A DNA stretch of 63,186 nt, filler included, from Platydemus manokwari (taxonomy: Eukaryota), in the NCBI GenBank assembly GCA_037951405.1. It is 6 parts of 6 records of this genome, joined end to end, with 100 filler letters (N's around TTAATTAATTAA, not from the genome) between each part and the next. Parts side by side here need not be neighbours in the genome. Positions count along the whole stretch, not along the records: positions 53,083 to 63,186 come from JBBMOY011168769.1; 5 more parts are not named here. One strand, given 5' to 3'. The position numbers and the translations under genes are program-made. Each line of letters begins with the position of its first letter. The stretch's first letter is position 1. The notes under the pieces were generated by a model. The model ran no database searches. It was not told where the DNA came from and saw nothing but the letters and a program-made list of their open reading frames with translations. Shown here in pieces: positions 11,032-63,186 of the stretch.

Positions 11032-11889
11032 ATGGTTTCAGACTCAACAAAAATTTCCGTACTCGGTATAGTAGCTGGATTATCACCACTTTTCTCAATC
11101 TTTTTTCTAAGATTAATCGAATATGATCATTATTTCACTTTGATTGGATTGTCACTATTCGGTGTTTCATTATCTTATTTTTACATGATATTCAGTTATC
11201 CAGATAATCCTGAATTCAACAAAATGAATTTTATGAGTGCATTTTCTTTGGGATTCATTGCAACATTAGCAATTTTATTAACGATTAATAATCCATTTCA
11301 TTTCATTTTTGGTGTTTATATTATTCAGTTGTGCTTTTTTCATTGGTCAGAATTTTTTATAACTTCTATCAATAACCCCGGTGGCCTAAAAATTGATTTC
11401 TATATGTTAAATCATTCACGAGAATATAAAATTGCTCTTTTGTTAAGTCTCTTAGAATATTGGATTGAAAAGACTTATTTTCCGATGTTTTTTGTCAATT
11501 TCCGATGGCTCACATATATTGGATTAACAATGAGTATTTCGGGAGAAGTTTTGCGCAAAATTTCACTTTGGACTGCGGGTAAAAATTTCAACCATTATGT
11601 TGAAATTCAAAAACGTGCCGATCATGTTTTGGTTCGAAATGGTGTTTACAATTGGTTTCGGCATCCCTCATACGTGGGATGGTTTTATTTCAGTGTTGGA
11701 ACTCAGATTTCTTTGCTAAATCCAATATGCTTCGTTGGTTATACGATTGCTTCGTGGATGTTTTTTAGTGAACGGATTTATGAAGAGGAAAAATCTTTGA
11801 TACGATTTTTCGGTAAGGACTATATTGACTATCAGAATGAAGTTGGAACTGGATTGCCTTTCATTGAAGGTTATCTGATTGGGAAATAA
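11032..11889 (+). CDS. ICMT: Protein-S-isoprenylcysteine O-methyltransferase, single coding exon
   Basis: 285-aa multi-TM ORF with FFHWSEF, LNHSREY, AGKNFNH, HVLVRNGVYNWFRHPSYVGWF, RIYEEEKSLIRFFG..Y..Y...V.TGLPFI. AATAAA overlaps the stop. Confidence 0.95.
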   Translation: MVSDSTKISVLGIVAGLSPLFSIFFLRLIEYDHYFTLIGLSLFGVSLSYFYMIFSYPDNPEFNKMNFMSAFSLGFIATLAILLTINNPFHFIFGVYIIQLCFFHWSEFFITSINNPGGLKIDFYMLNHSREYKIALLLSLLEYWIEKTYFPMFFVNFRWLTYIGLTMSISGEVLRKISLWTAGKNFNHYVEIQKRADHVLVRNGVYNWFRHPSYVGWFYFSVGTQISLLNPICFVGYTIASWMFFSERIYEEEKSLIRFFGKDYIDYQNEVGTGLPFIEGYLIGK

Positions 11890-18497: not shown

Positions 18498-21400
18498 ATG
18501 AGCTTTAAAACTGATTTTCCATCTATATTACCAGATTTTATTACACCCAGAAATTGCATATATTTCTTGATATCCAGAGAATATATTGAGCATGAATCAA
18601 ATATAAAAGTTTTGCTTGATGAAGAGGCACAATTTACGTTTGGTCTATTTCTCTTCAAAGCCATCAAGGTTGAATAAATAACGTCAATCTTGAAATTACT
18701 TTTTTCTTCATAGGATTCTACGATCGATCTATTTAAATATCTAAAAGAAAATGATAATGCTTTTAAGAAAAAATTAAATTTTCTAGTTATTAAGAAGTTA
18801 ATAAAATTTAATTAATGAATTTAATTAACTAATTCTGTTCTTTTTTCTTTAGGATCGAGTCAATCGTCAACAGTTTAAATGATTTTATTTCCTATTTTGA
18901 TATTTTAGAACTTGTTAATGGTAATGTGTTAAGTTCATTTCATGAACATGGTGATGTTATCGGCAATGAAAGCCGAGGGAAAATTTGTAAATATAGTTTA
19001 GTTGGTAAATTTTATCAATCTTTTTGGGTTGTGTTTTTATTTTAAATAAGGAGCGTTTATGAAAAAATTCTGTCTCGCATTCCAATCATTATCAATGGAA
19101 AAGATTGTTATGTTTATCGAGGGGTTTCGACAACTTCTCGAATCACACGATATTCTTCCTCGATCAAATAAAAAGTAAATTTTTTTACCTCCGAAAATCA
19201 ATCAAATTGATTCCGTCAATCATTTTTCCAGACTTAGCAAGTCAAGTGATTTAATGTTTAAACGATCGATGACATTGAAACAGGAACGTTTGAGTGAAGA
19301 TCAAGTTCGTTGGTCATTGGAAAATATGCATAAAGAAATCGAGAACGTTCTCTATTCGCCCGCCAATAAGAGTAACTGCCGACCCGTTAATGAATTGCGT
19401 CGCGACCTAGCTAAATACAAACAAATGTATCCCGATATTTCGGAATCTTTCTTCCTCGACAATCTGTTGATGATGCACAAGAAGGATTTCGCAGTGATCG
19501 AAAATGATGTCCAAATGAATTATCCAGCTAAATTTCTCAGTGCCGACGAGTCAGGGAATAAAGATCTCTTCTCTCTGCACGATTCCAATAAAGATAACAA
19601 CAAGAAGCTCATTCTATTTAAAAACAGCCAAATTCGTCAGAAACTTAGTGAGGTCAGCCTGAATAGCGCGATAACGTTTTCATCGATGGGTTTCAAGTAA
19701 GTATTTCTGTTTATATTATTGGTATTGATGTTGATGGGTTTGGTATTGATGGTATTTGAGTTGATAGGGTGGCATTTTGGGTTATGTTGATTCCATAGGG
19801 ATTGATATTGATGGTATTGTGGTGGATATTGATGTTATCGAGGTTACTATTGATGGTATTGGGGTTGATGTTGATGTTAATAAGGTTATTATTAATGGTA
19901 TTAGGGTTGATATCGATGTTAACGAGATTATTATTAATGGTATTGGGGTTGATATCGATGTTAACGAGGTTATTATTAATGGTATTGGGTTTGATATCGA
20001 TGTTAACGAGGTTATTAGTGATGGTATTGGGGTTGATATCGAAGTTAACGAGGTTATTATTGATGGTATTGGGGTTGATGTTAATAAGGTTATTATTAAT
20101 GGTATTGGGGTTGATATCGATGTTAACTAGGTTATTATTAATGGTATTGGGTTTGATATCGATGTTAACTAGGTTATTATTAATGGTATTGGGGTTGATA
20201 TCGATGTTAACTAGGTTATTATTGATGGTATTGGGGTTGATATCGATGTTAACGAGGTTACTATTGATGGTATTGGGGTTGATATCGATGTTAACTAGGT
20301 TATTATTAATGGTATTGGGGTTGATATCGATGTTAACTAGGTTATTATTGATAGTATTAGTTATGATTTTGAAGTCATTGATGTTTATCAGTGTAGAACT
20401 ACATTTATCGCCACTGTTCTACGTCAATATCGATTTATGCTTGTTAGTATCGATGGCTCCATGATGATTGTTGAAAGCTGGCACTTATTGATTGGTACCG
20501 CATATCAATACAAGTTGTTGAAATGATTATTTGTGTAAAATTGTGAGCAAGTATTGCGTATCAAAGTGACTAGCTGGGATTGTTGTTATATGGGTATTGC
20601 AGGTATCGCGGTATCGTCAAGCCTATATTATCAACATCATCGATATTCACAACCAAATGATATCACAATCAATAATTATTATCACATATTATTTCCAGGG
20701 ATGAAGCGTTGCTCCACTACAAAGATGCAATGTTTAATGCTAAATTGTCGAGGAAATCAGATTTGATTGCAGAAGTTGGCGTAGGTTTTTCTAGATTTGT
20801 CCTTTTATCATTTCGGGGGGGTGGTTTTGAGAGGATTGAAGTGATAAATATTGCGCGATCATCAATATATATCGCTTGTCATCTCATTTTCTCATCTTAC
20901 GGGGATAATATTCGATAATCGATCAGTATTGACATCGATATTTAGAGTGTTGGGAACTCACTGATGCCAATCAATGATAATCCAAATGGGGCATTCTATT
21001 CATTGATCAATGGCAACATGAATGATGTAAGCGACACGTGGTTGTTAATTATTGATTATTTTATCACCATAATTACAGAAAACAGCTCTGGGAAATATTC
21101 GAGACTTCCTCTTGTTATCTTTGCATAGCAACCGCAACAGTTTGCAAGAGTACGATAATTGATTGATTGAATTTGTTGCTATTGGTTACGTGTATGTGTG
21201 TGTAATGATTTTTGTTATTCAGATTGTTGCTGCACTATTTCAGCTCCCCTGCTCCACAGAGAAGAGAAATCACACCGATTTGTCTCATTTATTTGTCAAT
21301 CCTTTTTAGATCATTTGGATTTGAGTGAGTGTTGCCATGGATATTTGATAGATGTATTTGATCAATTTATTTATGATTTACAGGGCCATGGCCAATACTT

Positions 21401-22542: not shown

Positions 22543-23070
22543 GTGAGATTAGTTTATTATTATTATTATATTAATTATTAATCAATCAATAAATCAATTA
22601 TAATTAATAAATAAAGTTTATTATAATTAATTAACAATAATCATTAAATAAAATCAATAATTAATCAATAAATNNNNNNNNNNNNNNNNNNNNNNNNNNN
22701 NNNNNNNNNNNNNNNNNTTAATTAATTAANNNNNNNNNNNNNNNNNNNNNNNNNNNNNNNNNNNNNNNNNNNNTTTAATGTGGGACAACAGAATATTATT
22801 AGTAGTATTATTATTAGGAGGATTATTATTATGATTATTATTATTATTGTTATAATAATAATTATTGTTATTATTATTATGGTTATTATCAATTACAATC
22901 CGTATAATTACAATTACTTTTTATTATTGTTCTTAATTTAAGACAACGATATGCTCAGATGATTTATAAAATCTTTATCAACGTAACATGACTGCTATCA
23001 TTTATGCCAACATATTCTCAAATTCTGACACCAGCTCTATTTAATCTATAATTTATTATTTTATTTTAAG

Positions 23071-26000
23071 CAATGTGTCAGACAGCATCAATGATTTACT
23101 ATCCGCTTGTGCAAGCACATTGCCGTTGACGCAACAATTGTGTGAAAGTTCTCAAAGACAATTGGAATCGTTGAAAACAAGCTTGTTGGCCGAACCACCG
23201 ACTTTACCTCTAAACAATCTGTCATATAATCAATGCATGAAATCGGTGGATGAAATGTGTCAAGTAAAAATCCCATTTGTGAACATGAAACAATTGTAAT
23301 GTTTTTCTAGGAGTTAACCAATCAAATGAAACGCATTCCAATATCGTGTAAAACCGGTGACTCGAATGAGTTTTGTTCTGCAGTTCAGCAGTTGACATGT
23401 TTGACTATGGAAATGATGAAAGCCGCTACTCAAGCCAACTACACACTTGGTGTTATTCAATCCAATACAACACCTTCAGCTGCCATGTCAGTGCAGAATC
23501 AATTGATGGATTCATTGATACAGCATTCAGAGATCATTTCTAATAACTGTGCTAGTATAGCATCAAATGATGATTCAAATATATCGGTAAATAATAATAA
23601 TAATAATAATAATGATAATAATAAAATAATTTAATAAAAATAATAATAATAATAATAACCTCTAAAAACACAACAGATTATTGTAACCATTTCAAATTTG
23701 CTGTGATTATCATTATTTTTCCGTAGTATCGGGATCTTGCCAATGGCATTAAAACTAGAGCCGCCAGTGTTTGTCAACTGGTCAAAGATTTGATCAATAA
23801 TTCCAATGATGTTGATCATCAAAATAAATTACTGGAAGCCGGTAAAAGAGTTGCAGAAGCCACTGCTAATTTAATCAAGACCATAAACAGTGGTCCACGA
23901 TCAAGTACCAGCCAAACGGACTCATGGACAGTTGCATGCGGTTCAGTGGCTAACAGCGTAGAAGAATTATTACAGGTTTCGAAAAACAAACCAGCCAATG
24001 AATTAGAGGCTGCTATCATCACTGAGCAAGGACGAAATGTATGATGTTTTCAGAAGCTTTCATAAATATTTATCATTCATATAGGCACAGAAAGCACTTC
24101 ATGAAGCTTCGGTCGAAATGATTGAAGGTTCATGTTCTTTGTTAAGAGCTGCCGGTGCATTAGTAAGAGATGCAAAGAGCATTCCAGCCAATCAAGCATT
24201 CATAATCAATCAGAAAACATACGATAATTCACTGAATCGATTGAATAACGTTGTCAAATATTCAGCTCCCGGCCAACGGGAATTTATAGAAATGGAGGAA
24301 GAGCTGAAGCAACTGTTGCGAAATTTAGATCGAGCCAATATGGAGTCTTATACGATGAATAAATCATCTAAAATGACCCATCGAGCCGGTGATACACTTA
24401 ATAGTGATATCCAACGGATGCAGTTGTCCATGAAGCAATTGAAAAACAACATACCACCCATTGAACAGGTTTTGACAAACCCCAGCCAATTGGAATATCT
24501 AGGACGGGTTATTATGCAAGCTAACAGTTATCTGGCACCAATAGCAGAAGTATTTATCATTTAAATATCAATTATTAATTATAAATTTTGATTATTTTTA
24601 GAGTGCAAACAATCTCGCTTTGTCTCTGCCACACAGTCGCGACCGCGGAGAAATCGTTGAATTGACGAAAACCGTTCTGGAAGCATTTTTAGCAATGGTA
24701 CAAGAAAGTGAATCGATTTCTACCAGCAATAATTATCAGGTATCTCTTATTATTAATATAATAATATAATATTATAATATAAATATTAACAATAATAATG
24801 ATAATAACATTGTAAATTAGGAAACTGAGGAGTATATATCATCATTGAAAATTGGCTGTGAAGATCTGACAAAGTTTGTAGATGGAATTGCCAGTTGCCA
24901 TGGCACTGTCGAAAATCTGATTTCATCGATCCAACAATCAGTGGCTAGAGTAAATTGATCGAATTTATTGTGGTTGAATTTACTGATATTATGTTTGCTA
25001 TAATAGATCAACGATACTTGCAATGCCAATGCAGCCGATGTAGCATCAGCTCATACATTGATCGTGAACAGTGTCAAATCGATAACCGATTCTTTAAATG
25101 AAATATCTATTAGTAAAGAAGTCGGTGGCAATCGATTATTAAAGAAAGAATCCACAAAAAGACTCAAACCCAATGAAAACAGTCAAGTTCTCGTTCAAAA
25201 GAAAACTACCGATCTATTGAATCCGTTTAAAAAGCTCGTACAAGACTATGACAATCTGGTTACGGCAATCACTCAAATTATCAATGCTCGTCTCTCATCG
25301 GAACAAGATGATAATGATAAGCTGAAGAAATGCGTTGTGGCTATTGGACAGTCTTGTATGGATCTGATCAGATATGATCAAACGGAATTCACCAGCCAAG
25401 TTAGAAATCGTTTGGGTGATCTGATGTTTGCTTTGCAATCCACTTCAAAAGGAACCCAATGTTGTATCGCAGCTGCAAATAAAGTGAATCAGATGGTGGC
25501 TGATTTGGACACAGCCATTCTTTTTGCCAGTTCTGGAACATTGACTCTGTCTTTCGGCGGTACTGAAGACAGTCAAATCAAATCTGGATCAGTTCCACAG
25601 ATCAAAGAAGAGATATTCAAAATAACAAAAGCTTTGGTATCGGATCTCCAGAAAATGGTGTGTTTGTTTAAATGATGTATTATCGATCGTATTTCAAAAT
25701 TGTATTTGTTTTACTAGGTCACATCAGTTGACGGAAAACAAGAAAATTTAGCAATGGCTACCGACAATGCCGTTCGTCGAGCCGATCAGCTTTGCACTGC
25801 CGTCAAGAACAGTGCCTTAACAATTGGCGCCAATCCCGGAATGTTAGGATTCTTAGAAATGAACGATGAATGTATCAGTGCTCAGACATTGTTATTGAAT
25901 GCAGTTCGTGATGTAGCAGTAGCACTTGTGGACTTTTTCAATTGCACCAAGATGAATGTCACCACTAGTTCTGATAAAGATCGTGACAGGTAAGCCGTTC

Positions 26001-29000
26001 GTACAAATACGGTATTATTCACAGCAATTGATTGGATTTTTATAATTCGATTCTATTAGTAAATAAACTCGCCAATTTGTAAATAATAGAAAAGTTAATT
26101 TTAGAAAAATCAATAAAATCAGAAATCAACCCTTTTAAAAAATTATAAGTATGTATATTCAGTGGTACTTCTACTTACGAAATTAATTCGTTCTGGATGT
26201 CGTTTCGGAACGTGAACATTTCGTAAGTAAAGCCTATTTTTCCTGCTAAATGCCCTAATCGGTTCCAAGCCTCCAAAATCCAAACATAACTCTTTCATAA
26301 ATTAGAAAAATACGAGAAATACATGTTAAAATTGGATTTCTGCACAATAAGCATAAAAATGATAGTTATACGTAGGGTAAATAATGACCAAAGAATAATG
26401 AATTAAAATTTTAGCAGTTAAGCTCTTGTTTTAAGTGCTGTTGTCATTGCCTTTCGCTTTCTTCGACTCGGATTCACTATCAACAATGGATTTTGCCTGA
26501 CGTTTTATAAAGAACTGGTCCAAGGGCGTTTGGTTTTGTCGGCTTTTAACAATGTTTCGAAAATGTGCAAGGCAAACATCATCATAGTGAGAGATAGCCC
26601 GACTAGTGGACAGTTTTTCTGGGTGATGATGACAGAATAATTGCTGCCTTCTCGTCATCACTGAAATCCTCTTTCTACTTTTCTATTATCTCGTGCTTGG
26701 TTTGTATGGACAAAACATCTCTCTTCTTCCCGCCACTTTTCCCATCACTTTCTTGGGATCTTTAGTTAATAAAAGTGTAACAGAATTTAAATCTTGATTA
26801 AGATCTGAAAACTCAACTATTTTAAACAAAATTAAGTATTTTGAAGTTTTTAACTTTCGCATCGTGAAATTTTTCTAACCAGAGGTAATATTTTTCCGAG
26901 GGCGCGTTTCTTAACTTGAAAATTTCGTGTGTAAAGCCTTAAATAAACAAATCGATAAATACCACCAAATCAATAAATATGTCGGTAAATGAATCGACTG
27001 AAATTGACGGTTAATTCAATAAGATCCGGAAAATCTGTATTAATTATAACAATAAGCTAAATAATTAGTTGGAAGATCACGAATTATGATAAAAACGGAT
27101 ATGTAGGTCCAGAAATTTATAAAAAAAATTTATCAAGCTATATAAAACAATAATTATTCCATAATACATTTTTCGTTCAACAGAAGTCAGTAGTTTGAAG
27201 TCTCTTTGTTCTTGTAATTCGATTATGAATTCCATCAAACACCATTATATATCTAAGTGTAACACACAGATGAACTTTAGCATTTCGTAATGTAGACATC
27301 ACGTTTGTAGAAAACATTGAATTTTACACCCGTGTTTATGCTGTATCTCTTTCCGGATTATTTCTGTTTACCAAATCGTCATAAAAATAGATATTCGATT
27401 CGGTGTTTTGCGTTCAAGCTTCGTGAAAATAAATTTTTACAATTTACACTCAATTGGAAATCAATTATAGATTATTGATTAAAATCTTCATGATAAAATA
27501 TCTTGAAAAAAAATTAAAGATAAACAAAACAATCACGAATATGAAAGGAATAAATTAATGAACGATATTTATTGATAAAATAAAATTACCGATCTCATTT
27601 GACAGAAAAAAATTGTCTGTAATGTTTTCTCCAATCAAATTCAAAGTTTAGCCATCAGCAATTTGAGTGGTTTATCAATTGGACTCATAATGTCGATTAC
27701 CATTGATTGAACAACCTTGATTAACTGTTAGGAAGGGATAAGATCAAATCAAGATTGTTTGCAGTGATATGATTAAGGAATTGTGATGCGAAAATTATAA
27801 TTTTAATAATAACGCCATGCATCTTACTAAAGATCTCAAACGTATGTTAAAATATTAGTAATAGGTGACGATGTAATATATTTCATATTGATAATTGAGA
27901 TTTGACCACACTTTCGATGATCTACGAAAATTCACATTTTATTATTTATTAATTATTTTATCACAATAATATCTCTGTCACAGGGGGAATTTGAGGAACA
28001 GCCTCGAAACCATGGTCAAGAGTGTCGATGGTTTGATCAAGAGCGTTAAAAGTTTAGAAGATTCAGGATTTAGAGGCACTCGTGCATTGGAAGCCGGACT
28101 GGAAGCAATGAGGAAAGAATATCGTGCTCTGGATGCTTGGAATCCTGATGGAGACACCATACCAAATAATAATAACGAAGGTATCGTGTGATTTATAAAT
28201 CAATATAAATGATTTCAACGAACATTTCTCTCATCAGATGGCGAATTTTCACAAGTAGATATTGCAAATATCGCACAACCATCGGCAGACAAGGTGTATT
28301 CCATAGAGAATTTAGTCCTCATGACAAAACCCTTGGTTTTGGCATCACAAAAAGCTATGGCGGCAGTTCAGACATTCAAGCAGGAAGATGTAAGATTTTT
28401 ATTATTTTATATTTTGTTTTGCAGTTATTTTAATTATATTCGAAATAATATAATTATCATGATTTATTAAAATAATTACTGCAATGCTAGCTTTAAATGG
28501 AGAACGTTAAAAATTTGAATTCATTAATCAGTGTCTGAAATAATCAACCAATCAAATCTCTACTAAATTTCTCATCTATTGGGTTCGTTGTAGAGTCAAT
28601 AACTGTACCTTATCAACAAGATTCTCGTGTGTTGTGCACCTATATATTGCACGGCCAAATTAACTCTGTTACCGTGGTTACTATTAACCTAGATTATAAT
28701 TATTAATTTTAAATTTAAATAAATTATTATTAGAATTAATAAAAAAACAGTATTATAAAATATCGTACAATTATATTGTTACAGATATTGATGGCTGCCA
28801 ATGTCGGTCGTAAAGCCGTCCATGATTTTGCCCACCATTTGAGAGTGACTATTGAAATGAAATTGAAAGAAGAAAGTGCAAAACCGGCCAGAATTTTCAC
28901 TGAAAAGATTCATCTGTCTTCTGATCCAGATCGGAGATCAAGTGAATCCGTTAAAGACAATTCAGTCAAGATAATCGAACACGGCAAAGGTGCTGTCAAG

Positions 29001-31299
29001 GCACTAATCGAAATGTATGAAAATCTCAATAAAAGCGTATCCGAAGGCAAAAAAAGTGAATCACATAAAATGCAAATGACCCTCGCCTCAAGGCGAATTG
29101 CTCATTCAATTCACGAGGTCACAGATTCAGCCAGTCAACTAAAGAGTAACGATCGATGAACCTTCTTGAGCACATAAATTGAATTATATTATTACAGACA
29201 TTGATTTAGTCGATCAAACTGACTCCAATGACTCAGCAAATATTGCAGAAGAAGAATTGTTAGAAGCAGCCAGTCAAATCGAAATGGCAGCGAAAAAACT
29301 GTCTCTACTAAAACCAAGAAAATCAATAAAGGTAAAAATCAATTTGAATTTTTTTATTAACACCTACACATAATGAGTAACTTTTGATTCTTGCACTACT
29401 AGCATTCATCGCTTCTATGTGGGTGTGTGTGCACGTGTAGCACCGTGTAACATTGATAAATGTGTGTGTACAAAATTTGGCTGACATTGTGCAACGAATA
29501 ACGATTGCAACAAGCATAAGCACTTTTATACTATTATTGTGACTACCACGATTGATTTGTAATTATTCATTCTACTAATGGAGGAGAGAGGGTTGAAGGG
29601 TGTGTGTGTGTAGAGTCTACAATAATCATTATTGGGACGGGGATATATCATTATTAATCATGTCTGCGATTCAAGACCACTGATTAACAAAAATAAATCT
29701 CATTTCAATAATGCGACGTGTGATAAGATAAATGGATTTTTCAGTTGTATATGAGATCGGCTGGGCAAATCGAATTTTGGATATTACCATCTTAAAATTG
29801 AGTCTAGTATTAGACAATATATGCTCTGCCATTCATTAAATTGAACTGAGATTTTTGATATCATTCCATTCGGTGATGGCTTTTTCGTGATATTTTTCTG
29901 GTATTTGATTCAATTTACTTTGCTGATTTTTTCCCAAGTTTTGTTTTAAATTTTTGTTTTGAAATGATATATATTTTTTAATCAATCGAGAAGATCGATT
30001 GGTTCTTAAAGAACTAGTGGTTTTTACAATCGCAATAAAACATTTTATTTATCTCCATGGTGTTATCAGGATCATATTGTGATCAAAACAGCTATATTTA
30101 GTGCGATAATACCTGCCTAATTTTACAAATTTCGAATAAATTTGATTTCATTTATCTGGGTACAAATAAATAAAACTGAGGTGATTAAAATTAAAAAAGC
30201 GTATTTTTCTATTCAGAAAGACTCCGGTGAAGAGTACACGTTCGATAGTCAAATTCTTAAGGCTTGTGGCTCTATTGTCAGTGCCACATCACACTTGGTG
30301 AAGATGGCTACTCGATCTCAACAGGAACTGGTAGCATTAGGTCGGTTGAAACCAAGTGAAAATGTTTCCGATCAACGCGAAACCCAATGGAGTCATGGAT
30401 TAATATCTGCAGTAAGATGAATTTTCATTTATGTATTACACCGTATTGCTTTGATCCTATAAATCGATCTCGATGTGAAATGGGACGAATTTACTTTGCC
30501 ATGGAATGGTTGACTGGATTTTTAATTCTTAAGAATATTTGGTGGTAATTTAAGCAAATAAAACAACAAATGAAAGCTTCTACTATTTTATAGTAAATAA
30601 ATGAGGATGGCTGAGTCGATATCATAGAGATAAAATCGATTTTAAAAAAGCTTGAAGAGCAATTTTTGGTAAAAAAACAAGGTCATTTTTAAAAAAAATA
30701 AATATTTGAGTTTTACGATTGGAAATCGAAATCTGTGAGAAATATGGAATGATAGAATGGAGGACTTCCGTATTTTAAACCATAAATGAAAAAACATTTA
30801 TTTTCAGGCCAGATTGGTTGCAGCAGCAACGGAAAATTTGAGTGACAGTGCCAAAGCAGTTATGCAAGGTAAAAGTGGAATGGAACGATTGATATCAGCA
30901 TCGAAACAAGTGGCGGCAGGCACCGCTCATTTATTATTAGCTTGTCAAGTCAAATCCGATGCAGATTCTAAAAGCAATCAAAATCTACAAGCAGCTGGAG
31001 CGGCAGTAAAACGAGCGACAGAAGCGCTGGTGAAAGAAGCATTGGAATGCAAGGACGTTCAAGACACTTCGGTTAGCTATTCATATGAAGGATCGAGTAA
31101 AAGTATGGTTAATTCCATGCGAAATGTGAGTGTTGCCTATTATGAAATGATCGTGTTTATTAAATGATTCCAGGTCATTCAAGCTCAGGCTGACATTGTA
31201 GCCAAAGAAAAGGAGCTGGAAATGCTTCGTAACAAATACCAAACAATTCGCCAAGAGCAAATCTCTACACACCCCGACCTTTTTAACAATGACAATTAA
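23071..31299 (+). CDS. TLN: Talin, rod R7-R13 plus dimerisation helix; FERM head and R1-R6 absent from this contig
   Basis: APGQREF...LRNLDRA (R9), GTQCCIAAANKV..MVADLDTAILFASSGTL (R11), GTRALEA, AEEELLEAASQIEMAAKKLSLLKPR, I/LWEQ motifs QWSHGLISA and ERLISASKQVAAGTAHLLLACQVK, and last exon IQAQADIVAKEKELE ending in TAA at 31299. Confidence 0.95.
26160..26940 (-). mobile_element. Internally deleted Tigger/pogo element in a talin intron
   Basis: Terminus CAGTGGTACTTCTACTTACGAAATTAATTCGTTC. ORF 26661-26431 HPEK...HFRNIVKSRQNQTPLDQFF resembles the TIGD1/Tigger C-terminus. Confidence 0.7.
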
Positions 31300-34097: not shown

Positions 34098-34469
34098 ACC
34101 TAGGGTATGAATAAAAAATTAATTCCGTTTAATAAAATTATAAATAAATTATTATTAAAAAAACAAGGCTTTTTGAGAAAGCAAGAAAAAAGTCTATTTA
34201 GTTAGAATTCGCTCTTTGAAATGTTTTGCTTATTTATATGCTCATTATTATTTCTGTTTTATGTTGCATTCATTCGATATAAATGTGCCCTCGATTATGA
34301 AAGTGGTATAAGTCATATATTTCTTGTTTGGAGATATTAAGGGATTTGCATGTTAAAGAATTAAAAAATNNNNNNNNNNNNNNNNNNNNNNNNNNNNNNN
34401 NNNNNNNNNNNNNTTAATTAATTAANNNNNNNNNNNNNNNNNNNNNNNNNNNNNNNNNNNNNNNNNNNN

Positions 34470-36780
34470 TTTCACCGATTGATGGATTTGTGTTACGAAG
34501 CCTTGTAGAAGAAACAAAGCAAAGTGAATCAGAGATAATTCTCTTTTTCAGCGGACAATCGGAGTTTAAAACACGAAATGCTTGAACAATGCATTGAGTT
34601 TGGTATTCATCAATCAATCCAGTAAGTCCGACACCACAATTTACTATCGATGAATAAAGATATCAGTTTTCAGCTGATTTGGTAAATAAAGTAAATGTTT
34701 CATGTAAGCTTGTATTTTACTACTTTTTCATTCAGTGAAGAAATTTTGATTTCTCTGCTTCTAAACGCATATACAAGTCCAGAGTGCAAGAAAATTCTAT
34801 GCGATTTAAGCTTTTGCCAATCCCATAAATCAGAATTGACTATTTTACCAAGATCAATTACAAGTTTGTTCAAAATCACGTAAGAAGATTGGTCATTTTA
34901 TCGCTTACAAGAACACCAAGATACAATTAAAATTCTTTAGTCAACAATCTTTTAATATTTACATAATTAATAGATATTATAACATCAGTACTTTCGTGTG
35001 GCAAACTTATGATGGTACATTTATCTGGGCGGTATTGTAAATCAGCCCATTCAGTTACCTCAACAGCTTTATCGATTAGTCTTTAGAGATCAGGAGTATT
35101 ATTGGCAATCAAAGAAATAGCATCAACGTAAGCTAGAACCTTAACAGAGCTAATTCCTTCTGAGAAATTGGGAACTGATAAAAATTCAATGGCTTCAAGT
35201 ACTGGGTTAATTGTCAAAGCAAACAGAGTCATCGGTATAGGACAGCCCTGTTTCACTCCTCTTCGAATAGGGAAGTCCGGTGTAGTAATAGGTCCACAAA
35301 CATAAAATGAACTTATGTCAGTGTAGAACAATTCAAGAGTATCGATGAAAGAGTCATTTATACCTATAAACCGCAGAAGACCCCATAGATATTTATGTAA
35401 GACACTAGGAAAGGCGTTTGCAATGTCAAGCCAAGCAACATAAATTGACAAGAGTCGAGTGTATTTTGAATGTTCAAAAGCAGCATTAAGAATAGGGTTG
35501 TGTTCAATACAACCCTCATATTTAGAGCCGCCTTTTTGACCCCTGTTGAGGAAGTTATTATTTTTAATCCAATGCTCTAGTCTTCTAGTCAAGATTGACG
35601 AAAAAATCTTGTATGAAGTTGATAAAAGAGCTATTGTTGTTTATGTTTTTATACTGGCCATCTTTATCTGGTTTTGGAATTAGAGTTGACATAAATTTTC
35701 GCCAATTTTTTGGAGGTTTATGAGTCGAAATGACTTTATTAAAAAGGTGAGTTAAAAGGATATCTTCAGGGTCTAGAAGTGAAAGGTCACGGTATGTGAT
35801 TTTGTCACTGCCAGGTGAGGTATTACCTGCGGATTTAAAAATAGAAAGAACTTCCCTCGGATTAATGGGTTCTAACTCTAATTTATCAATGACAGTTTTG
35901 CAATACCCATTATTATAATCCCATATGGTTGAGTTGGGTTTTTCATGAGAAAAACAATCAATTATATCATCAATAGATGGTCTAGAGTTGATTTTGTCAT
36001 CATTAACAATATCATTAACAATGTACTCATATTTCTTAAAAAATTCATTTTCTTGTTGCTGTCCCTGGTTTTTTTTATTGAATCCTGTCCTTACTCCTAA
36101 ATATGGTTTATTCCAAATATCGTTTCGGTTTTGTATTTTTTCCGGTAAGCAGCTAAAAATTTCATTCAATATTTCATTTGGGTCGGAATTCTCGACTTTT
36201 TCAATATTTCACGGGATTTTTCAATTCTGCTTTTTAAACTAAGGTAATTTTTACTCATTCTTTAAATAATTTTGGAATATTTTTGGTCTTTATTCTCCAT
36301 AACATTGTCGGCGTTTAACAGACTATCAGAGCCATCCATATTATTTAAGTAATTGAATATAATGTCAAAATTGATATTCAAAAGTGGCAGATTTTTTATA
36401 TAATTAAGTATATATCCACATAAAAGAATATTTGAGAAAATCCCAGAACGGCGAGTTTCATATTCTTCATATTGAACAACGACGAAAGATTCTTTCAAGC
36501 CCCGTAGTTCTAAAATGGAATTGGTGATCGTTTGATCCAAAGATATAAATCGATCATTACAAATTGAAGTTGTCAGATTTAGAACAAAGACAACACTTTG
36601 GGCAAAGTTACGAACTAGTCAACTTGATCATAAATGGTGTCTACTGTTATAGGCATAAATTGTCAATTTTGAGGTTCTTCCGTGTTGTGCATCAATGCCC
36701 TTTTCGTAGCTCGTCGAGTTCTATTGGATATTGGCGAACGAACAATTATTTTCCTCTCACTTTTTCTGACTTTACTATTT
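34470..36780 (-). mobile_element. Frameshifted non-LTR retrotransposon (R2/NeSL-like RT), cut by the spacer
   Basis: SPGSDKITY, LIPK, QKGG...GCIEHN, VAWLDIANAFPSV, RGVKQGCP, LAYVDAI, YRPDKC; Cys-rich N-terminal remnant near 36600. Confidence 0.88.
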
Positions 36781-53789: not shown

Positions 53790-54400
53790 ATTTTTCAGGA
53801 CAAGGATAAGAAAGTTCAGAAACATAAGTAGTCCGACTCAAAGAAAAACCCTTCAACAATAGAATGCGCCAAATCTGCTACCGGAAAAACCACGGAACGC
53901 GAGATTGCAAAGCGTCAACAGACGTAAACGAAGAAAAGATAAAGTGTCAAAAATACGGATTGGACAACCATAAAACAAGTAAATGCACCAGAACAGGCCT
54001 AAAATGCAACTATTGCGGTAAAAATGGATATCTTCAGGCAATACGTTGAACAAAAGTTAACTCTTCCAAACGAGAAGGGGTCAGTCAGCAAGGGAAAATT
54101 AAATGTTATAGATGCGGTCGGTTTGGACACGTGAGCCGAAGCTGCCCACAAAATGAAAGAGAAAAACCTACTCAAGTGATAGTAGCATACGAAAATGCAC
54201 CTCAACCGAACTTAACTCGATTGCAACAGCTCGAAAACGAATATTTATAAGAAAAAAGACGGGTAAATAGATTCTGAGCACCCGTAAAGATAAGGCTATC
54301 TGCACGAATCGAAACCAAAGGAAACACGTAGATATACATAGCCTCATAATGGATAAAAACAAGAATAGTGAAGAAAAACAAAAGGAGAACGAAACTCACT
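53790..54400 (+). mobile_element. LTR-retrotransposon gag remnant with four zinc knuckles
   Basis: CQICYRKNHGTRDC (frameshifted), CQKYGLDNHKTSKC, CNYCGKNGY and an intact CYRCGRFGHVSRSC at 54104-54145. Confidence 0.8.
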
Positions 54401-56332
54401 TTTGGGCGGCCACCTCATTGATCAGTATTTCCTGCAAGGCATATCAATAGTATGATTACTTCCAATGAGCATCTTTCGAGCTCGCAGTGGATAATGATAT
54501 AACTGCAAAGCTATCATGTGAAGACCGTGAAGCCTACAAGACGTATTTCAGAAATTATTCGACTGACCAACTGAAACATCCCCAGATACGCCATCTGAAT
54601 TAAGCCTATATACGGATCAGGCTAGTAATTGCAGCGGAGAACCCTCACTCTAAGGGAGCCACCAGCACCAGTAACAATCAGCTTGACAATACTTATCAAC
54701 ACTAAGAAATTTCCAGTAGACATGTTCGAGGACCGATTGAAAACAACCGTTGACATCAAGAATGACCTAAATTTATTACCCAGAATCGATCTCAATAGTG
54801 ATCAGTTTGCATGTGTAAACAATTCACCTGGTGGGGTTTTATGAAGAGAGAATTGGCAAATGAAATTAAATTAAAATTCTGGTGTTATAGGATAACAATT
54901 AATATCACTTATCGATTAAATTGAAGCTATAAATATAAGATTAGGTTGCGATTTTGTTCCCAGCAGAATCTGCTCTTATCAGATACATATGAAGTGTTCG
55001 AATCACTCTCTTATACTACTTATAATAGTTAAAATATAAATAGTCAGGTGAAATATAAACTTATCCTGAAAAATATGAAAATAAATTATTAAATAAATGA
55101 ATACAATAAAGTAAGTTTATTAACAATATAAATCTAATTTTGTAATATACTAAAGGTACAATTTCTATCGCTGACGGTTAGTAGATAGGAGAACAGTCGG
55201 ATGTGCCCAACTAGTTGGCAAGACACCCCTGTGGTTAAAATAGAAGGTGGGAGATAATAAGTAGAACCTAGTAAATTTAGAAGAACCTAAAGCTATCGAG
55301 ATAGCTGTGGGTGCATAATGAAAACATAAAATTTTACTTATCATGTTGCTGAAAATACACAGTAATTGATTCCTGATATGCTTCTAAGAACTGATTCGCG
55401 TAAATGTTTCCCAAATAATTACTATACAATAATAGATGCGTTTGAATTCTTCTTCAACTAAAAGTTTCATTTTCATCTCTGGAATAATAATATTTGAATT
55501 GTGCGTTTAAAATTTTAAAAATTAACTGAAAGTAATCGCGTATGATAAAGTGCAATCACACTGAATTTGCTTGCTCATAATGGTGTGTTAATATTTTGTC
55601 TTCCTTTGTTTCTAAATTTAGAATCTCTCTAGACATCATGTCTAAATTTAGCAATAGCCTACTGTTTTTAGATACTTGAGTTGCTAAATTGACCTACACT
55701 ATTTTAGTACTGACGAAGTTACTAAAAATAAATTTTAAAATAATTTCTTGCTCTTGACCTTGGATTCTATCTGGGTGGCGTTGAGGTCATTTAAACAAAA
55801 GAATTTGTTATAGAAAAACAAAATTTTTGTTTAATTTATTTTTAAATAATTCTATATGAAAATTTTTGAATTTTTTCATTTTATTTAATCTAAGAATTTT
55901 TAAAATTTGATTTTTTATGTTTTTAATATTCTTTTTATTCTTATATATTTATTATTGTATCCTAGTTTAATAGTGTTGGGTAAGGTCGGATTCCACAAAT
56001 AACCTCAAAATATCTTCATTAAGGGCATTCCTGTAACCCCACAATATTTAGTTTATCGCCTGGGGCAGACAATGAAACGATGAGAACCTCATACTATATA
56101 GCTCCATTGCCAGTGAACAACAATGTATAGCACCACCATCGGTGGAAAGCAACCAGCATAGAAAAAAACAGGGCGACTACCGATATACTCTAAAAAACTC
56201 AACAAAACGAACCACAACTGGATACAATCTTCATGGAAACAAGTAGATAGAGAAAATCAACGAATTCTTACGGACAAGCAGAATCCAAACCAAAGGAGAT
56301 GAACGAAATATGATAAAACACAAAGCATAGTA

Positions 56333-57730
56333 ATGGGTTGGTTAGTAGGATTCAAACTACTCCTCATAGTCGGCTTAATCAGAAAAGCATCATTACTCAC
56401 GGCGTATGACTGCCAAAACTCTAAACTCTCCAATATATATTCGTAAAAAATGGAGGTCTGATTACCCCATGTATTTGGCATTGAAGACTACACTGTAGAG
56501 TTAAGAGAATATAAAGGGACATTCAATAGGGCCACGAGTAAAATGATGCAATATCCAGGTTGCTCACCAAGACATCACATTTGCAAGGTAGACAATCTAC
56601 GCTGCTGTACAAGGTCAAGCCAAGCTACTGTGCAGTTTCATTCCTACTGAGAGTACCATTTATACCACTTCAAGCAATATGGGACACATCGGAAAAGGAA
56701 AGTCTCGTAAACAAGACTAAGCAGAAAATTGGAGGAACACAATGTCAAAAAAATTGAATTACCAATCTTATTAATGTCAGCACATAGGCACGAAGCAATC
56801 TCTTTCATCCGGAAAAAAATAACGGGGTATCTGTGGAGTACTAATGTATAAGACAAATTACCAAGGTTTCTACCTCAGAAAAAAGGCCACAGATGCAGGA
56901 GTCACAAAAGCGATATTAAGCCCGCATCCTATCTCAATAATAAAATAGATTATGCCTATCATAAACTCCAATCTCAGATGCTGGAGATATATCAGGAGAC
57001 AATTTGGGAAATTGCAAACAAGACCGAGAAATTTTGAGAAATCGGCATGCCATAGCCCTCAAAAACCAAGATTTGGTTACACCCATCCTAATGGAAAACT
57101 GTAGATATGGAGATTTATCGGAGAAGCCTGATATAGCTAAGAATGTGAAGCTGTACAAGTCAAACTAGGAGAAGGACAGGCATGCACTCGTGAATTTGAA
57201 GTAATCTACCGGAATCAGATAAGATATATGTAACCTTTTACGCATATATTACTGCCACAAGACAGTCCGGCTACAAGTGGCAGAGTGCAACCTACTTTAA
57301 AAAACAAACGAACAATGCGTGTCAATATCAAACAGAAGGCCATCCAGAGATCTTGTACAACTGCTGGATTTGAATATCATCAAGGGCAATATCAAATTTT
57401 ATCCAAAGGAAGTTATAGAAAAAAGGGAATTTACACACCAAAGGATATGGAAGAGGCAAGAAGAGCCTTGGTGTTCCCTCAATTCAGAAATAGAGGCATA
57501 TCAGAAATCATACATACAATCTATGCAGATGGAAATTCAAAACCAAATTGTGATAACGTGTTCTGTGCACATCACTTTGCTTCGATAGCGATAAACGTTG
57601 CTCAACGAATTTGGGGAAGATTTGCCGATTTCCGTATATTCATTGTCAGATGTACACGAATATTTGTTATCGTAATCAACATGAAAAAGGTAATTCATCA
57701 GATAATGATGATATACCAAGACATCGTGAT
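56333..57730 (+). pseudogene. Decayed env-like class III fusion glycoprotein (chuvirus G / gB-like type)
   Basis: Signal peptide plus LLTAYDC; CKQDREILRNRHAIA; IGEA.Y..ECEAVQV......CTREFEVIY.....Y..PFTHIL; GIYTPKDMEEARRALVFP; IWGRFADF followed by a hydrophobic segment. Confidence 0.75.
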
Positions 57731-57949
57731 CTGCGTTCACCAAAGGGAGCGCAGTCATCAAGAGTGGAACACATCCCGCTATCTACATTCAATTCAACTA
57801 TGGCAATTCATCAGGGCCAGAAGCTAAAAACTATCCCTTTCATGACTTGAAGCAACTCCCAGACAGATATGACGCAACGGGAGAAGAAAAAATCATCAGT
57901 AAGACAAAGTTTACTAGACACAACTCAATACCGGAAAAATCAGATAGGT

Positions 57950-59410
57950 TTTACCGAGTATAATCAAATGGCCACCTCAGTTAATGACGATCAGGCTTAA
58001 TAGACATCATATCAGAGCATTAATTTTTTATGGGCGGATACAACGATTGGCAACCCGTGTATGTTAAATCACAATGAATTGAACAGTTTTCAAAGCACGG
58101 ACATAACGATTACAGGCATCAGGGGAGAAATCGTAAGACCCAGAAGTATATTACCATGAAAATCCAATTCGCGAACAACATAATTACTGTGATGGTGCGG
58201 GTATGCGAGGAATGTTCTTTCGATTGTATCATTGGTAGACATCATGAAACAATTAAAAGGGGTCGTGCATGAATGCGCAACAAGAAAACCTATCCAAATC
58301 ACCAGAGATCATCGTAAAATAATCGATATGTACAGATTGACGATGATCTAGTAATTGAACCTCGCACTGAAATTATTTGTTTCGGGCACACCAGTAAGAC
58401 AGATGACACTGACGTAGTGTTCGAGCCAAATGAACAATTCATGGACCAAAGCGGTATGTCCATCGGAGCATGCGTCGCAACTATTTAAGAGGGAAAAATT
58501 CCGATAAAAATAGTAAATTCGTTCAAACAACTCCTTTGTATATATGCCGATGCGAAAATAGGGGAAGTCACAGAATACGCACTGATATCGCAAGAAGTGA
58601 CTACTAAATTGTATGGACCACTACTAGCATAAAGTTCGGATATTACTATACAATAATGTGATAGAACCACAGTGCTGCTGAATAAATACGAACAGGCATC
58701 CGCCAAACATGAATATGACCTCGGAAGGTGTAATTTATTACAACACAAGATCGAACTAATCAATCCGCACCCCATCTATCAAAGAACTTTGCAAGTACTA
58801 GTAATCATGGAGACGGAAATAAACGGAAAATAGATGAATTATTGGAACAAGGACGCATCAGACCCTGTAATTCATCATTGCGTTCACCCATAATCATGAT
58901 GAAAAAGAAAGGCGGAGCGATGCGAATGTGCATAGACAACAGTAAGGTGAACGAACGTTCCTACTGTCTCTTATTCATGAAATGGTCAATCGCGTTACAG
59001 GGGCAGATCTGTTCTCAACCTAGAATTCACAAATTAGATCTAATAATCTCCAGATGGAAGAGAAATTCATTCCTATCACGGCATTCACGGAAGGAAAGGG
59101 CTTATTCATATACACCGTCATACCATCTGGGCTCACTGGAGCTTCCGCAACCTTCCAGAGAGCGATGAATCTGATGGTGATGGATGTCTAGCATGCTATA
59201 TTGTATATTGATGATGTCATAATCCACTTGGTATGAAGAACATCTGGTGGACATCGAAAACGTATTAAAAAGGTAACTATGACTTAGGTGAAATTAAAAC
59301 TCACCAAATGCTAGTGAGCACAAAAATATGTCAAGAGCTTGGACATGTTGTATTGGGACAAGAAATCAATCTGGATAGAGCACACATTATAAAAGTAGAA
59401 CTCTATCTCC
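57950..59410 (+). mobile_element. Ty3/Gypsy pol remnant (protease, linker, RT); no RNase H or integrase seen after it
   Basis: DLGRCNLLQHKIEL, IRPCNSSLRSPIIMMKKKGGAMRMCID, ITAF, PSGLTGASATFQRAM, YIDDVII at 59204 and LGHVV; stops and frameshifts. Confidence 0.9.
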
Positions 59411-60497
59411 ACTTTTCGAGTTATCCAGAATTAAGTAAAAATTATTAGAGTTATCTATCAGGAGCTCCACGAGAAATGGATTAATTCATCCATCAGCATA
59501 ACCAATCGACCTAATCGAGAAATTGAAGCTGAAAATTATCAGTCAGCCTCATATCAGTCAGCTGAATTGCCTAAACCAAGTCCCGCAGTAACTCAGAAAT
59601 TCAAGGAAATTCCATGGGCACAACCCAATTGACAATCTACGATTCAGAAGATGACATATTCACAATGTTTGCACCTGATGAAAAAGTCGGCCTCATCACA
59701 GAAATGAATGATTATCACCCGAAGTAACCGATTCAAAAGAATACAGCCGCAAGCAACACTCTCAGTAATAGGGAACCAAGGAGCAACGTAATGGTAACAG
59801 AACCGAGGAAAACTGTCGGTAAAACTAGTAGTACCAATCATGACATTGTCAGTCAGTGAAGTTTTCAAGACACTTAAAAATAGTATAACCGGACATGAGA
59901 CACATCATAGTACACCACGAATGAAATCAAAGGTGGAACTGAAAAGGAAATCAACAGTATAATTCAAAGACCTTCGCAGGATCCCAAAAAACTAAAACAT
60001 TATCTCAGAAAACAATGGTACCAAAGGTCATCGCCAAGATCATCAGAGAAAATGACAAAGAATGGAGCGTAACAGGAGTGCAGTATACTAAAAAACGCAC
60101 CAAAGAGAAACTATTCTAAAAAATATGCAAATCCGAGATTGAAGACGGAAACAGTGGGTCTCACTCAGGGGGCGAAGAGGACGTTGTAGATCTCACCGGA
60201 CTCATAGAAGGAGCCAAGGAAGGAGACAGTTCGTTAAATAGGCAAAGGCGATCCTAATGACAGCTATTGTCATTTTTCTTCAGAATCATATACGTGATCA
60301 ATCTTCTGTCTCTTGCTATTATGTAAAATGTTCTCATATTTTACGTATGTAAATAATTGTTTTAATTTTATTGTATGATAATCAACTATAATATTATGTA
60401 AAGTGTTGTGCCCTACCGTCTAAACTTTTTAAATTTCTAAACTTTTTAAACTCTCTAAATCTTCCAAGCCTTAATTAATTTTCAAGGCAAAAATTCC

Positions 60498-60514
60498 AAA
60501 GAAGGAAGATATGT
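60498..60514 (+). promoter_or_regulatory. Possible polypurine tract and start of a 3' LTR
   Basis: AAAGAAGGAAGA, TA, then TGT, downstream of the retroelement body. No matching second LTR found. Confidence 0.35.
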
Positions 60515-61764
60515 TTGATATATTCAACCCACATCCCAACCCACATTAATAATATGAATAATCAACCCTTGAAATTAATTCTGAAATTTTAAAAAATTGC
60601 GTTTACAGGGTAATTTAAAATTTTAATTCGCGTCACCATGGTGATTTAATATATTGCTAAGACGAAAGCATTAGTAAAATTGAATCACTATGGAATATTA
60701 ATATTCACTATGGGAGAAAAATAAAATTACAGAAAATTAGTAATCACTCCCACAAAATTCTGGGTATACAAACCAGCCCAAAATTCACAAAAGGCGTATA
60801 CGATTCTATACAAAATTTGACCATAAATTTGCAACAGATTTTCATCTTCGCTCAGTACGCGAATAGTATTCTACTCAGTCAAATATTGGGACAATCTTCA
60901 CACAAACGGAAATTTCTTCAATTATCTTCATCAATATTTGGGATGTTCCTCATTCATCAAGCTTTGGGATCTCATCATCCAATGGTCGGAGTATGATTGG
61001 TATTCACTAGATATATTGAGCAAATTCAAAGTGTTTTTAATTCATTTAACTTTCCGATAATATTATGCCCATGGTAAATTTTATTAATTTTCAATCGATC
61101 ATCTTCTTGCAAAGCTCGATGAGATTTGCAACATCTAAATTCATTTCCTAAATTTATTGTCCGAAGCAGGCGCATCTAGTTCCCTAAGTTGGTTGTTCAT
61201 TTTCTTCAGGGCACGACACTAATATCTTTTAACATTCTAGAATCATACATTTGATAATTTTATATTATAATAAAAGTATTAGTATCATTGCCTCATTATT
61301 TTATTGGTCTATCATTATTTTATTATCCGAATTATACACACAAAATATTATTCTGATTGTAACCAGAACCATTTTTCTAATTTTAATTATATCAGATAGT
61401 TCAGAGTTTAAATTAGTTGAATTATCTTAAATATGTCACACCAAATACCACTTAGCAACAGGTTAGTAGGAATCCATCAGAATAATCAAACTAACTTATT
61501 AAAGGGATGTAAGAAAATTTACTATATTTACTTATATTATCAAATATATAAATTATTATAAAATTTCGTCGAGTGAAAAATACACAGAAATTTATATTAA
61601 TATATTTAGAATGTTGAGGCCCAACTCAACTTATAATCAATCTAACTCTGCTCTTCTAGGTCTGCAGTGCAATTGCCAAAAGCTCAAAGTGTTTAAACAA
61701 GTACATTTTAGTTGTTTTTAATGGTACAACCATTTCATGTTTCCTAATACATGATGCAAATAAC

Positions 61765-62570
61765 TACAATCAACATGTTCAATATGAACTCTGTTTAATA
61801 TGAACATAGTATAATGTGAATATTTAAGTAAAAATTATTGGAAATCATATGGTTTTCATAGGAAATTATGTTTTATAACACGAACACTGTTTATTTTTGA
61901 ACAAGGAACAAAAAAATACTGCAAAGAAAATCAATAAATTATACAATTATTGTTTAATTATTTAATTTTAACTATCTTTCATGAACATGAAAAAAACAAA
62001 TACAAAATGAAAGAAAAAATTTAAGTATTGAAGAGAAACCGAAATTGTTAAAATTATTCGATGAAAATAAAGGCTGTTCTCAAAGCTTTCTTTCATCAAA
62101 ATATAATCTTTCATTGGGCCATATAAATAATCTAATAAAATCTAAGGACTTCATTTTAAATTCAAACTTGAATACCTAACAAAAACGAAAAACGCATTCA
62201 CGTGGTGGATATCAAGTTTATACCATCTTATATGAATGGTTTCATATTCAGAGAACAAGAAATATCAGTATCAGTAGTGATAAACTACAACAAAAAGCAT
62301 TAGAATTAGCAAATCACTTAAGAATTCATGATTTTAAGGCATCAAATGGTTGGCTTAATTCTTTTCTTTTCAGGCATATGATATCATCGAAGAGAATTAT
62401 TGGGGAATCTAAAGCATGGAATAGTGTAAAACCTGCGACTATTTCTAATTGTTTTCCAAAGTTTTTCGAAAATGCATATGTTAAAGAAGTGAACACTGAA
62501 TGTGGTGATTTTCTATGTTTTAAAATTAATTCAAAATTTGACGAAAATATATTAGTTTACGATATTTAGT
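61765..62570 (+). mobile_element. Tigger-like element with CENP-B HTH domains and the DDE domain deleted
   Basis: RKNLSIEEK, LYEWF...R..NISIS...LQQKALELA......FKASNGWL..F..RH.I....I.GES joined directly to AWNSVKPATISNCF; TIR-like start TACAATCAAC. Confidence 0.85.
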
Positions 62571-63186
62571 CTAAGAAGAATTAATAAAAAATGACAAAAT
62601 AATAACAACTTAAATATATTTTAAGTGATCTCTAACGAGTTATTTTAAATCATAGGAAGAGTATTATTTAACTTCAAGTAATTATGATAAAAAACAAGGA
62701 TAATATTCAAATGGTTGATTGTCTACAAACAAATCTCTCTATCAAAATTATTCAAAGCTCATTTATTTCATCTTGATAACTTTTTTAATTATTAGAAAAA
62801 ATATAAAGTCATAAATTTAAAGTTTTAGTAAAATTTGTATTTCTCCAGATGAAAACCAAGCGCAAAAATATCATTTTGGTTCAATTTTTCATTGGTAATC
62901 TCAAATACAGAGATCTTATTCCTGATTCATCCATTAAGAACCAAAATTAAAGTGGCAATAAAAATTTCACAGTAATATAACGATAAATTTTAACGGTGCT
63001 GTTTTGTTTTAATAATCAATAATAACTAAGATCTATCTTTATTCAAAAACAATAGTAACGGTTGCAATGATCACTCTTCATAGTTATGGGTTATTTCAAA
63101 TGACATCACAGATAAGTTGTCTGATTGATTACAATCGTCTTCGTCTCCGTGAGTCGAATCTTTGATCTCAGATTTCATAGACGAAC

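Follow-up and report, generated by a model that had tools for sequence, protein, structure and literature searches.

A decayed gB-type env beside a Ty3/Gypsy reverse transcriptase: very probably a dead GAG-ENV-POL retrotransposon copy, probably in a flatworm

A broken env-like sequence lies beside a Ty3/Gypsy reverse transcriptase (RT) in the DNA analysed here, and this raises the question whether the env and the RT belong to one element and whether such an element is new. We conclude that the locus is very probably a dead genomic copy of a GAG-ENV-POL-type Ty3/Gypsy LTR retrotransposon, probably in a flatworm.

The whole stretch of 63,186 nucleotides, called the window here, consists of contigs of about 9-12 kb of AT-rich animal DNA, which are joined by five identical 100-base linkers (an N run, TTAATTAATTAA and an N run) at 10663-10762, 22674-22773, 34370-34469, 43714-43813 and 52983-53082. 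Since these linkers are artificial, neighbours across them may not be true neighbours. The env relic sits in the last contig (53083-63186), which is free of gaps. The features of the locus are as follows.

53870..54280, + strand: Gag remnant with degenerate CCHC zinc knuckles, the best at 54104 (Pfam zf-CCHC, E 6.6e-6; blastx to env-bearing polyproteins)
54280..54880, + strand: stretch between Gag and Env with element-like composition (GC and skew as in 53770-54880)
54900..56030, no strand assigned: AT-rich interrupting stretch of about 1.1 kb (GC and skew contrast with both sides)
56333..56443, + strand: env N-terminus, a hydrophobic stretch that most likely serves as an internal signal, with AYDC behind it (same alignment position in all 8 relatives tested; motif positions)
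56444..56479, + strand: break, containing two stops and the point where about 120 codons over the domain I hairpins were deleted (alignments to relatives; mapped on the model of the relative P0009)
56480..57730, + strand: remaining class III env, with the end of domains I-II, the central helix, the C-terminal ectodomain, the membrane-proximal region and a decayed transmembrane anchor (identity to P0003, P0004 and P0183; PF24664)
58097..58320, + strand: retropepsin protease, C-terminal half only (alignment with P0003 residues 1124-1197; tblastn with P0020 residues 306-443, E 1.4e-5)
58330..58700, + strand: protease-RT linker (20-33% identity to the same linker in 12 of 12 RT-bearing relatives)
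58700..59400, + strand: broken Ty3/Gypsy RT with YIDD kept at 59204 (Pfam RVT_1, E 5.3e-8; solved-structure matches)
59400..60260, + strand: A-rich stretch with element-like composition

The env relic and its surroundings

An earlier note on this DNA had listed a series of env motifs, and each was found in the order given there, on the + strand between 56333 and 57710. The leader starts at 56333, AYDC at 56402, C..REIL at 57013, AIA at 57049, GE..Y..C at 57120, CT.E at 57183, P.T.IL at 57234, GIYT at 57426, L.FP at 57468 and W..F..F at 57612; the hydrophobic segment ends at about 57710. The leader had been taken for a signal peptide. A hydrophobic leader is present at 56333, but it is most likely an internal signal sequence, since the relatives carry the same stretch inside a polyprotein. 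The earlier note had seen an open frame only for the C-terminal third; the longest env ORF is a C-terminal piece of 197 codons.

In a frameshift-aware alignment to the natural relative P0004, the region 56478-57730 scored 477, whereas 25 triplet shuffles gave 33.6 +/- 3.4 (maximum 42) and the reverse complement 45. The match is therefore far above chance. The relic is 31-32% identical to P0003, P0004 and P0183 over 409-454 aligned positions; for the nearest full-length relatives the identity is 31-33%, and to the fragment P0002 it is 50% over 90 residues. Pfam PF24664 (viral fusion glycoprotein) matched 57114-57824 with 51.4 bits (cut-off 27, E 6e-14) when the C-terminal frame was read with X at three stops, and the bare ORF 57234-57824 with E 3e-7.

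The fold was assessed with P0009, a natural relative of 748 amino acids with a complete env, whose folded model reached pLDDT 75.6 and pTM 0.48. The best match was E 2.9e-40 (TM 0.49) to chuvirus-like glycoproteins and E 6.4e-14 to herpesvirus (HSV) gB, and in a wide PDB structural search all 50 listed rows were gB (Z 10.4, rmsd 8.8, 407 aligned). The identity in these structural matches was mostly 15-22% to chuvirus-like G and 9-14% to gB. A model of the relic's own 237-aa fragment was weak (pTM 0.39); its top matches were chuvirus-like glycoproteins (E 2e-4, TM about 0.2), and a wide PDB structural search with this weak model was uninformative, returning generic long helices only (best Z 6.9). 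A PDB sequence search with the env fragment gave zero matches at E <= 10. The earlier note had claimed a chuvirus/gB-type class III fusogen and proposed a profile and structure check. This check came out in favour of the claim, with PF24664 above its cut-off on the relic and a fold match to chuvirus G and gB via P0009, and the assignment of the env to the chuvirus-like, gB-type class III fusogens is supported.

The env is heavily damaged. In the relic 26 codons separate AYDC from (I/V)EDY; in the 9 of 16 relatives where the pattern was found, the distance is 146-149 residues, and thus about 120 codons were lost. The absent region corresponds approximately to residues 165-295 of the P0009 model, which are long beta hairpins early in the ectodomain. 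The fusion-loop positions of gB agree with a location in domain I. Because this part maps to the domain I hairpins of the P0009 model, and because the fusion loops of gB-type errantiviruses are located in domain I (PMC13524379), the relic would be without its predicted fusion-loop region. Alignments with three guides gave 6-8 frameshifts and 3-7 stops each, varying with guide and span, and at least five stops overall. The stops at 57129, 57138 and 57231 were common to all three alignments, and those at 56444 and 56459 were seen in both alignments that reach the env N-terminus. The relic has neither a whole ectodomain with its fusion loops nor an undamaged anchor, but the domain I deletion, frameshifts and stops. 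Judged by its reading frames, the env is a relic and not a working fusogen.

The Gag remnant matched the knuckle region of env-bearing polyproteins by blastx (P0177, E 5.6e-8; P0179, E 4.8e-6). Upstream of the knuckles neither a capsid domain nor a 5' LTR was found. The Gag piece lies 2.2 kb away from the env, and 1.1 kb of this distance is foreign-looking DNA. The two element stretches, 53770-54880 (AT skew +0.30) and 56040-60260, both have a GC of 0.39 and a strong A excess on the + strand, with an AT skew of +0.24 to +0.30 across both. Between them, 54900-56030 has a GC of 0.27 and an AT skew of -0.03, and the right flank is likewise at GC 0.27 and unskewed. Pfam matches were absent from all six frames of 54900-56030, and by its composition this stretch is probably a later insertion into the element. 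In 54280-54880 no Pfam match was found in two frames, the relatives did not score above shuffles and a 33-aa piece was without an Atlas match; this part is probably a decayed accessory region.

The env ends at about 57720 and the protease homology begins at about 58097, which places the env within 2 kb of pol as in a GAG-ENV-POL element. An intact catalytic motif was not found in the protease remnant 58097-58320. A dUTPase-like domain has its position between protease and RT in the planarian element Burro (PMC6431247). For the RT, the best solved matches were 4ol8 (E 1e-8) and the Ty3 Gag-Pol 7q5b (E 5e-8), in agreement with the Gypsy-type RT that had been claimed beside the env and with its RVT_1 match. 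Linker and RT together are 38.7% identical to P0183, and the RT is 38-43% identical to the RTs of PR-RT-RH(-IN) polyproteins. The pol piece contains 5-10 frameshifts and 6-8 stops (two guides), and the RT homology stops at 59400, at the start of the thumb. No Pfam match was observed in 59400-60260, where the RH, IN and C-terminal regions of 7 relatives were not above shuffles. Searches for RNase H and integrase in 59390-60300 and across the whole window found neither, and no long direct repeat that could represent an LTR pair was found in 53083-63186. Taken together, the order is Gag knuckles, env, protease and Gypsy RT over a visible span of about 6.5 kb; a Gypsy-type RT and a Gag with a CCHC knuckle upstream of pol are present as in Ty3/Gypsy elements, and PR precedes RT, with RH and IN missing. 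The position of the env is corrected here to upstream of protease and RT, not downstream.

Elsewhere in the window the following features were annotated.

2167-3297, - strand: angiotensin-converting enzyme (ACE; E 3e-67)
11029-11889, + strand: ICMT (E 1.5e-28)
24085-31167, + strand: talin-like exons (weak, E 0.036)
35083-36208, - strand: RT fragment (RVT_1, E 1e-10), presumably LINE-like by its motifs
52256-52771, - strand: DDE_1 endonuclease fragment (Pfam)
62180-62569, + strand: Tc5 DNA-binding domain (Pfam)

The ICMT has 42-56% identity to its best named relatives and 60-65% to two others; in a tree of 30 rows (27 named, no nematode) it groups with Spirometra, the sole flatworm, at 98/93, where long-branch attraction is possible. 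Together with the motif likeness of the env to a Schmidtea element (see below), this makes a flatworm host likely, probably a planarian. The region 1-2000 is A-rich (GC 0.37) and retroelement-like and adjoins the ACE gene; Pfam found only the ACE edge there, and no match to the relatives was obtained. A tandem array with 21- and 42-base spacing, in which frames stay open on both strands, occupies 19680-20496. A decayed fragment without a Pfam match lies at 53083-53760 and 48780-48857, a 78-base part being repeated with 81% identity; we take the motifs of 53083-53760 to resemble a Polinton-type DNA polymerase B.

Relatives of the env and its linkage to the RT

A HMMER search of 1.84 billion representatives gave 54 matches at E <= 0.001, and a word-index search for longer relatives with the 197-aa ORF gave none among 152 candidates. 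Pfam was run on 18 of the 54 relatives and placed a retropepsin directly after PF24664 in 10, with RT and RNase H also present in 3 and integrase in 2. When the P0003 env was searched among proteins of 1444-4598 aa, 13 matches were obtained, 11 of them new. The env stands before the protease in all 11 of these further long relatives and is followed by RT-RH-IN in 9. The full PR-RT-RH-IN order was seen in 11 of the 29 relatives scanned with Pfam, and Retrotrans_gag or Ty3_capsid in 3 of the 29; RT_RNaseH and Integrase_H2C2 were also present. Peptidase_A17, DUF1758 and DUF1759, which we take to be markers of BEL/Pao elements, were found in none of the 29.

Each of the best relatives is one open Gag-Env-Pol polyprotein (P0003, P0010, P0177-P0183, P0185 and P0186), in which the link between env and pol is covalent, and the window is collinear with the relatives from env through RT. 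At the threshold used, a hydrophobic segment before (A/G)(Y/F)DC was detected in 7 of 17 relatives, and by eye in others, and a second one after the ectodomain in 14 of 17. Several polyproteins (P0004, P0010, P0011, P0177, P0178 and P0180-P0182) contain at least three retropepsin-like D(T/S)G motifs, located around the env and after the integrase; multiple retropepsin copies per relative were confirmed by Pfam for several. A helical region with a Bcl-2-like motif lies just upstream of the env in P0009, P0004 and P0176 (Pfam E 0.00096 for P0009). In the window, a candidate Bcl-2-like or accessory domain upstream of the env had best scores of 44 and 42 versus shuffle maxima of 35 and 49 and was rejected, given 19 queries.

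P0003 is labelled as coming from a Flavobacteriaceae genome bin, and 37 loci with Gypsy pol likewise sit in bacterial genome bins. The Gypsy pol in these bins (P0003, L001-L037) is most likely eukaryotic contamination. A search with the P0003 DNA in bacterial and archaeal genome contigs found no relative.

The linkage was tested with RTs from 12 relatives that had been found through their env alone. The window RT scored 322-373 against these 12 env-bearing RTs; with 26 Gypsy RTs whose loci gave no env match, the scores were 75-262. These 26 derive from the 37 loci with Gypsy pol, of which one was left out and 26 of the remaining 36 had an RT of at least 170 aa; the tree was computed without one near-duplicate. 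None of the 37 loci gave an env match at E <= 0.001 when searched with 32 env queries; they are mostly short contigs whose env may lie beyond the fetched DNA. The env relic scored 259-477 against 22 envs of long or polyprotein relatives and 112-181 against 17 stand-alone glycoproteins, for which the viral status is not shown in each case. Quick trees of RT and env, as the earlier note had proposed, were computed without bootstrap and have long window branches (1.48 for RT, 1.89 for env); the RT groups with the 12 env-bearing RTs (SH-aLRT 99) and the relic with the 22 envs (SH-aLRT 95). The frames of the window row in the RT tree were guided by P0003, a bias of which the pairwise scores are free. 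Since every one of the 12 env-bearing RTs gives the window RT a higher score than any of the 26 others, and since this RT also groups with the 12, env and pol appear to belong to one element.

Proposed pathway of the living element and rival explanations

In the living element, synthesis of one polyprotein would take place at the ER. Its hydrophobic segment ahead of AYDC would act as an internal signal that threads the fusogen into the lumen, and signal peptidase would free the fusogen N-terminus. The anchor after the ectodomain would bring the chain back into the cytosol, and there the retropepsin would release RT, RNase H and integrase. Because hydrophobic segments flank the ectodomain in the relatives, one frame could supply the internal signal, the fusogen in the lumen, the anchor and the pol in the cytosol. 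The trimeric class III protein would then let particles fuse into other cells. The window copy, as far as its DNA tells, is incapable of these steps, having lost the predicted fusion-loop region, the frames, RNase H, integrase and the LTRs, and appears to be decaying neutrally.

Alternatively, a chuvirus glycoprotein gene could have been reverse-transcribed as a non-retroviral EVE and have come to lie inside an ordinary Gypsy fragment by chance or template switching. The fold and Pfam matches to chuvirus-like glycoproteins fit such an event, as does the finding that arthropod chuvirus insertions are often flanked by Gypsy fragments (PMC10084718). However, the env is much closer to the polyprotein envs than to the stand-alone glycoproteins, its spacing to the protease is like that of the relatives, and env, Gag knuckle and RT each indicate the same lineage; the frames scanned in 53083-61402 showed no viral N or L domain. 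The agreement of env and RT already appears to refute such an insertion largely, and we consider it extremely improbable. That a BEL/Pao (Anakin-like) element, nested with a Gypsy one, supplied the env has next to no probability. The assumed BEL/Pao marker domains are lacking in all 29 relatives, which have Gypsy-type Gag, RT_RNaseH and Integrase_H2C2 instead, and the best solved matches of the RT are to Ty3 (the tree was without a BEL/Pao reference RT), even though a related glycoprotein is reported from BEL/Pao elements of mosquitoes (PMC7642597; cited in PMC13524379).

It was also considered that the animal carries an intact element, whose breaks in the window would be errors made in assembling or sequencing a collapsed repeat, or that the env was domesticated by the host. 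The assembly is fragmented, as the string of contigs of about 10 kb with artificial linkers indicates. Nevertheless, the many point stops, the 120-codon deletion, the 1.1-kb insertion and the loss of RH-IN speak against an intact element, and host genes on other contigs keep long frames (ACE 376 codons, ICMT 286 codons). Domestication is countered by the longest env ORF, which is only the C-terminal piece of 197 codons. We regard both variants as highly improbable. The Ty3/Gypsy context that the earlier note had claimed, against BEL/Pao or a free viral insertion, is upheld by the Ty3-like RT, the collinear relatives and the RT and env trees, and we retain the reading of the locus as a dead GAG-ENV-POL copy.

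For the lineage, the questions are whether it forms infectious particles and how a lone gB-type protein would enter cells; the entry mechanism of gB-type elements was called unknown in PMC13524379. Among the 11 relatives with an integrase, at least two hydrophobic segments follow the integrase in 9, one in 1 and none in 1. A post-integrase membrane protein is predicted in P0003, P0177-P0182, P0185 and P0186, and the region between its hydrophobic segments is highly variable; in P0003 it contains weak fibronectin type III look-alikes (scores 0.89-0.92, low recognition). The post-integrase C-terminal region was sought in the window and was absent there, and is known from the relatives only. By analogy with gH/gL for herpes gB, the lineage might encode a two-protein entry apparatus in one polyprotein, consisting of the class III fusogen and a type I membrane protein after the integrase that binds the target cell. 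We regard this as possible but rather doubtful. If true, it would answer the entry question left by PMC13524379. No mention of a second membrane protein was found in the available part of PMC13524379, whose figures may show it, or of the planarian literature.

Comparison with known systems

The earlier note implied that the locus marks a new enveloped Gypsy lineage with a class III fusogen, but elements of this kind are already published (PMC13524379, PMC6431247). Env of the gB type occurs on Ty3/Gypsy elements across animal phyla about as frequently as the F-type and has been likened to the Chuviridae glycoproteins; GAG-ENV-POL is given as the order in Nematoda, Bryozoa and Platyhelminthes, and nine flatworm elements are listed, six of them from Schmidtea (PMC13524379). 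In the planarian element Burro, an in-frame env with gag before and pol after it was described in 2019, with decayed copies in Dugesia japonica (PMC6431247). The words Burro, polyprotein, in-frame, single ORF and fused are absent from PMC13524379. Since an env between gag and pol has already been described in flatworm genomes, the locus, although real, is not new: it belongs, in decayed form, to a kind of element that is already published. The fusogen had also been called independently acquired, which is true only insofar as fusogens of the gB type and the F type are not related to each other. As one more dead copy, the locus alone matters little, yet with an env identity of 31-33% it shows that the lineage contains divergent subfamilies.

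The closest likeness is to the GAG-ENV-POL gB-type errantiviruses Smed_errantivirus_1-6 (Chary and Hayashi, PMC13524379), which have in common with the window a Ty3/Gypsy RT, a gB-type env between gag and pol and a probable flatworm host. In 56480-56563, 17 of 28 positions are identical, by eye, to the domain I-II row of Smed_errantivirus_4 (PMC13524379 supplement). The Smed errantiviruses are intact and present in 1-215 copies, whereas the window copy is broken, deleted and truncated; the two are likened by description and this by-eye motif only. The Platyhelminth C1a cysteine-bridge region is largely deleted in the window, the motif likeness being by eye only. PMC13524379 includes elements by their intact ORFs with full RT and integrase, and the window copy, which lacks these, is a decayed relic of the lineage.

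Burro/GYPSM1 (Arkhipova and Yushenova, PMC6431247) resembles the locus in its env in frame between gag and pol, its matches to mononegavirus glycoproteins, its CCHC knuckles and its PR-RT linker. It is a giant of more than 25 kb with Bcl-2, BIR, MATH or ankyrin domains, whereas the window copy is about 6.5 kb without LTRs; the two were compared by description only. None of these four domains was detected in the decayed window copy, but Burro-like extras occur in the relatives, with the weak Bcl-2 match upstream of the env in P0009 (E 0.00096) and ankyrin repeats in P0176. The Burro env was tied to gypsy Env by HHpred (PMC6431247), whereas the fold of P0009, the relative of the window env, is class III.

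Anakin and related BEL/Pao elements (Dezordi et al., PMC7642597) carry a glycoprotein of the same family, but with a BEL/Pao pol and in mosquito hosts. In arthropods, Gypsy fragments were found near chuvirus glycoproteins with no clear capture (PMC10084718). The Jingchuvirales G (PF24664) has the AYDC and GIYT motifs in common with this type of env in the alignments. Jingchuvirales G and herpesvirus gB have the same class III fold as P0009, but each is the product of a free gene, whereas the env described here is of a type embedded in a retroelement polyprotein.
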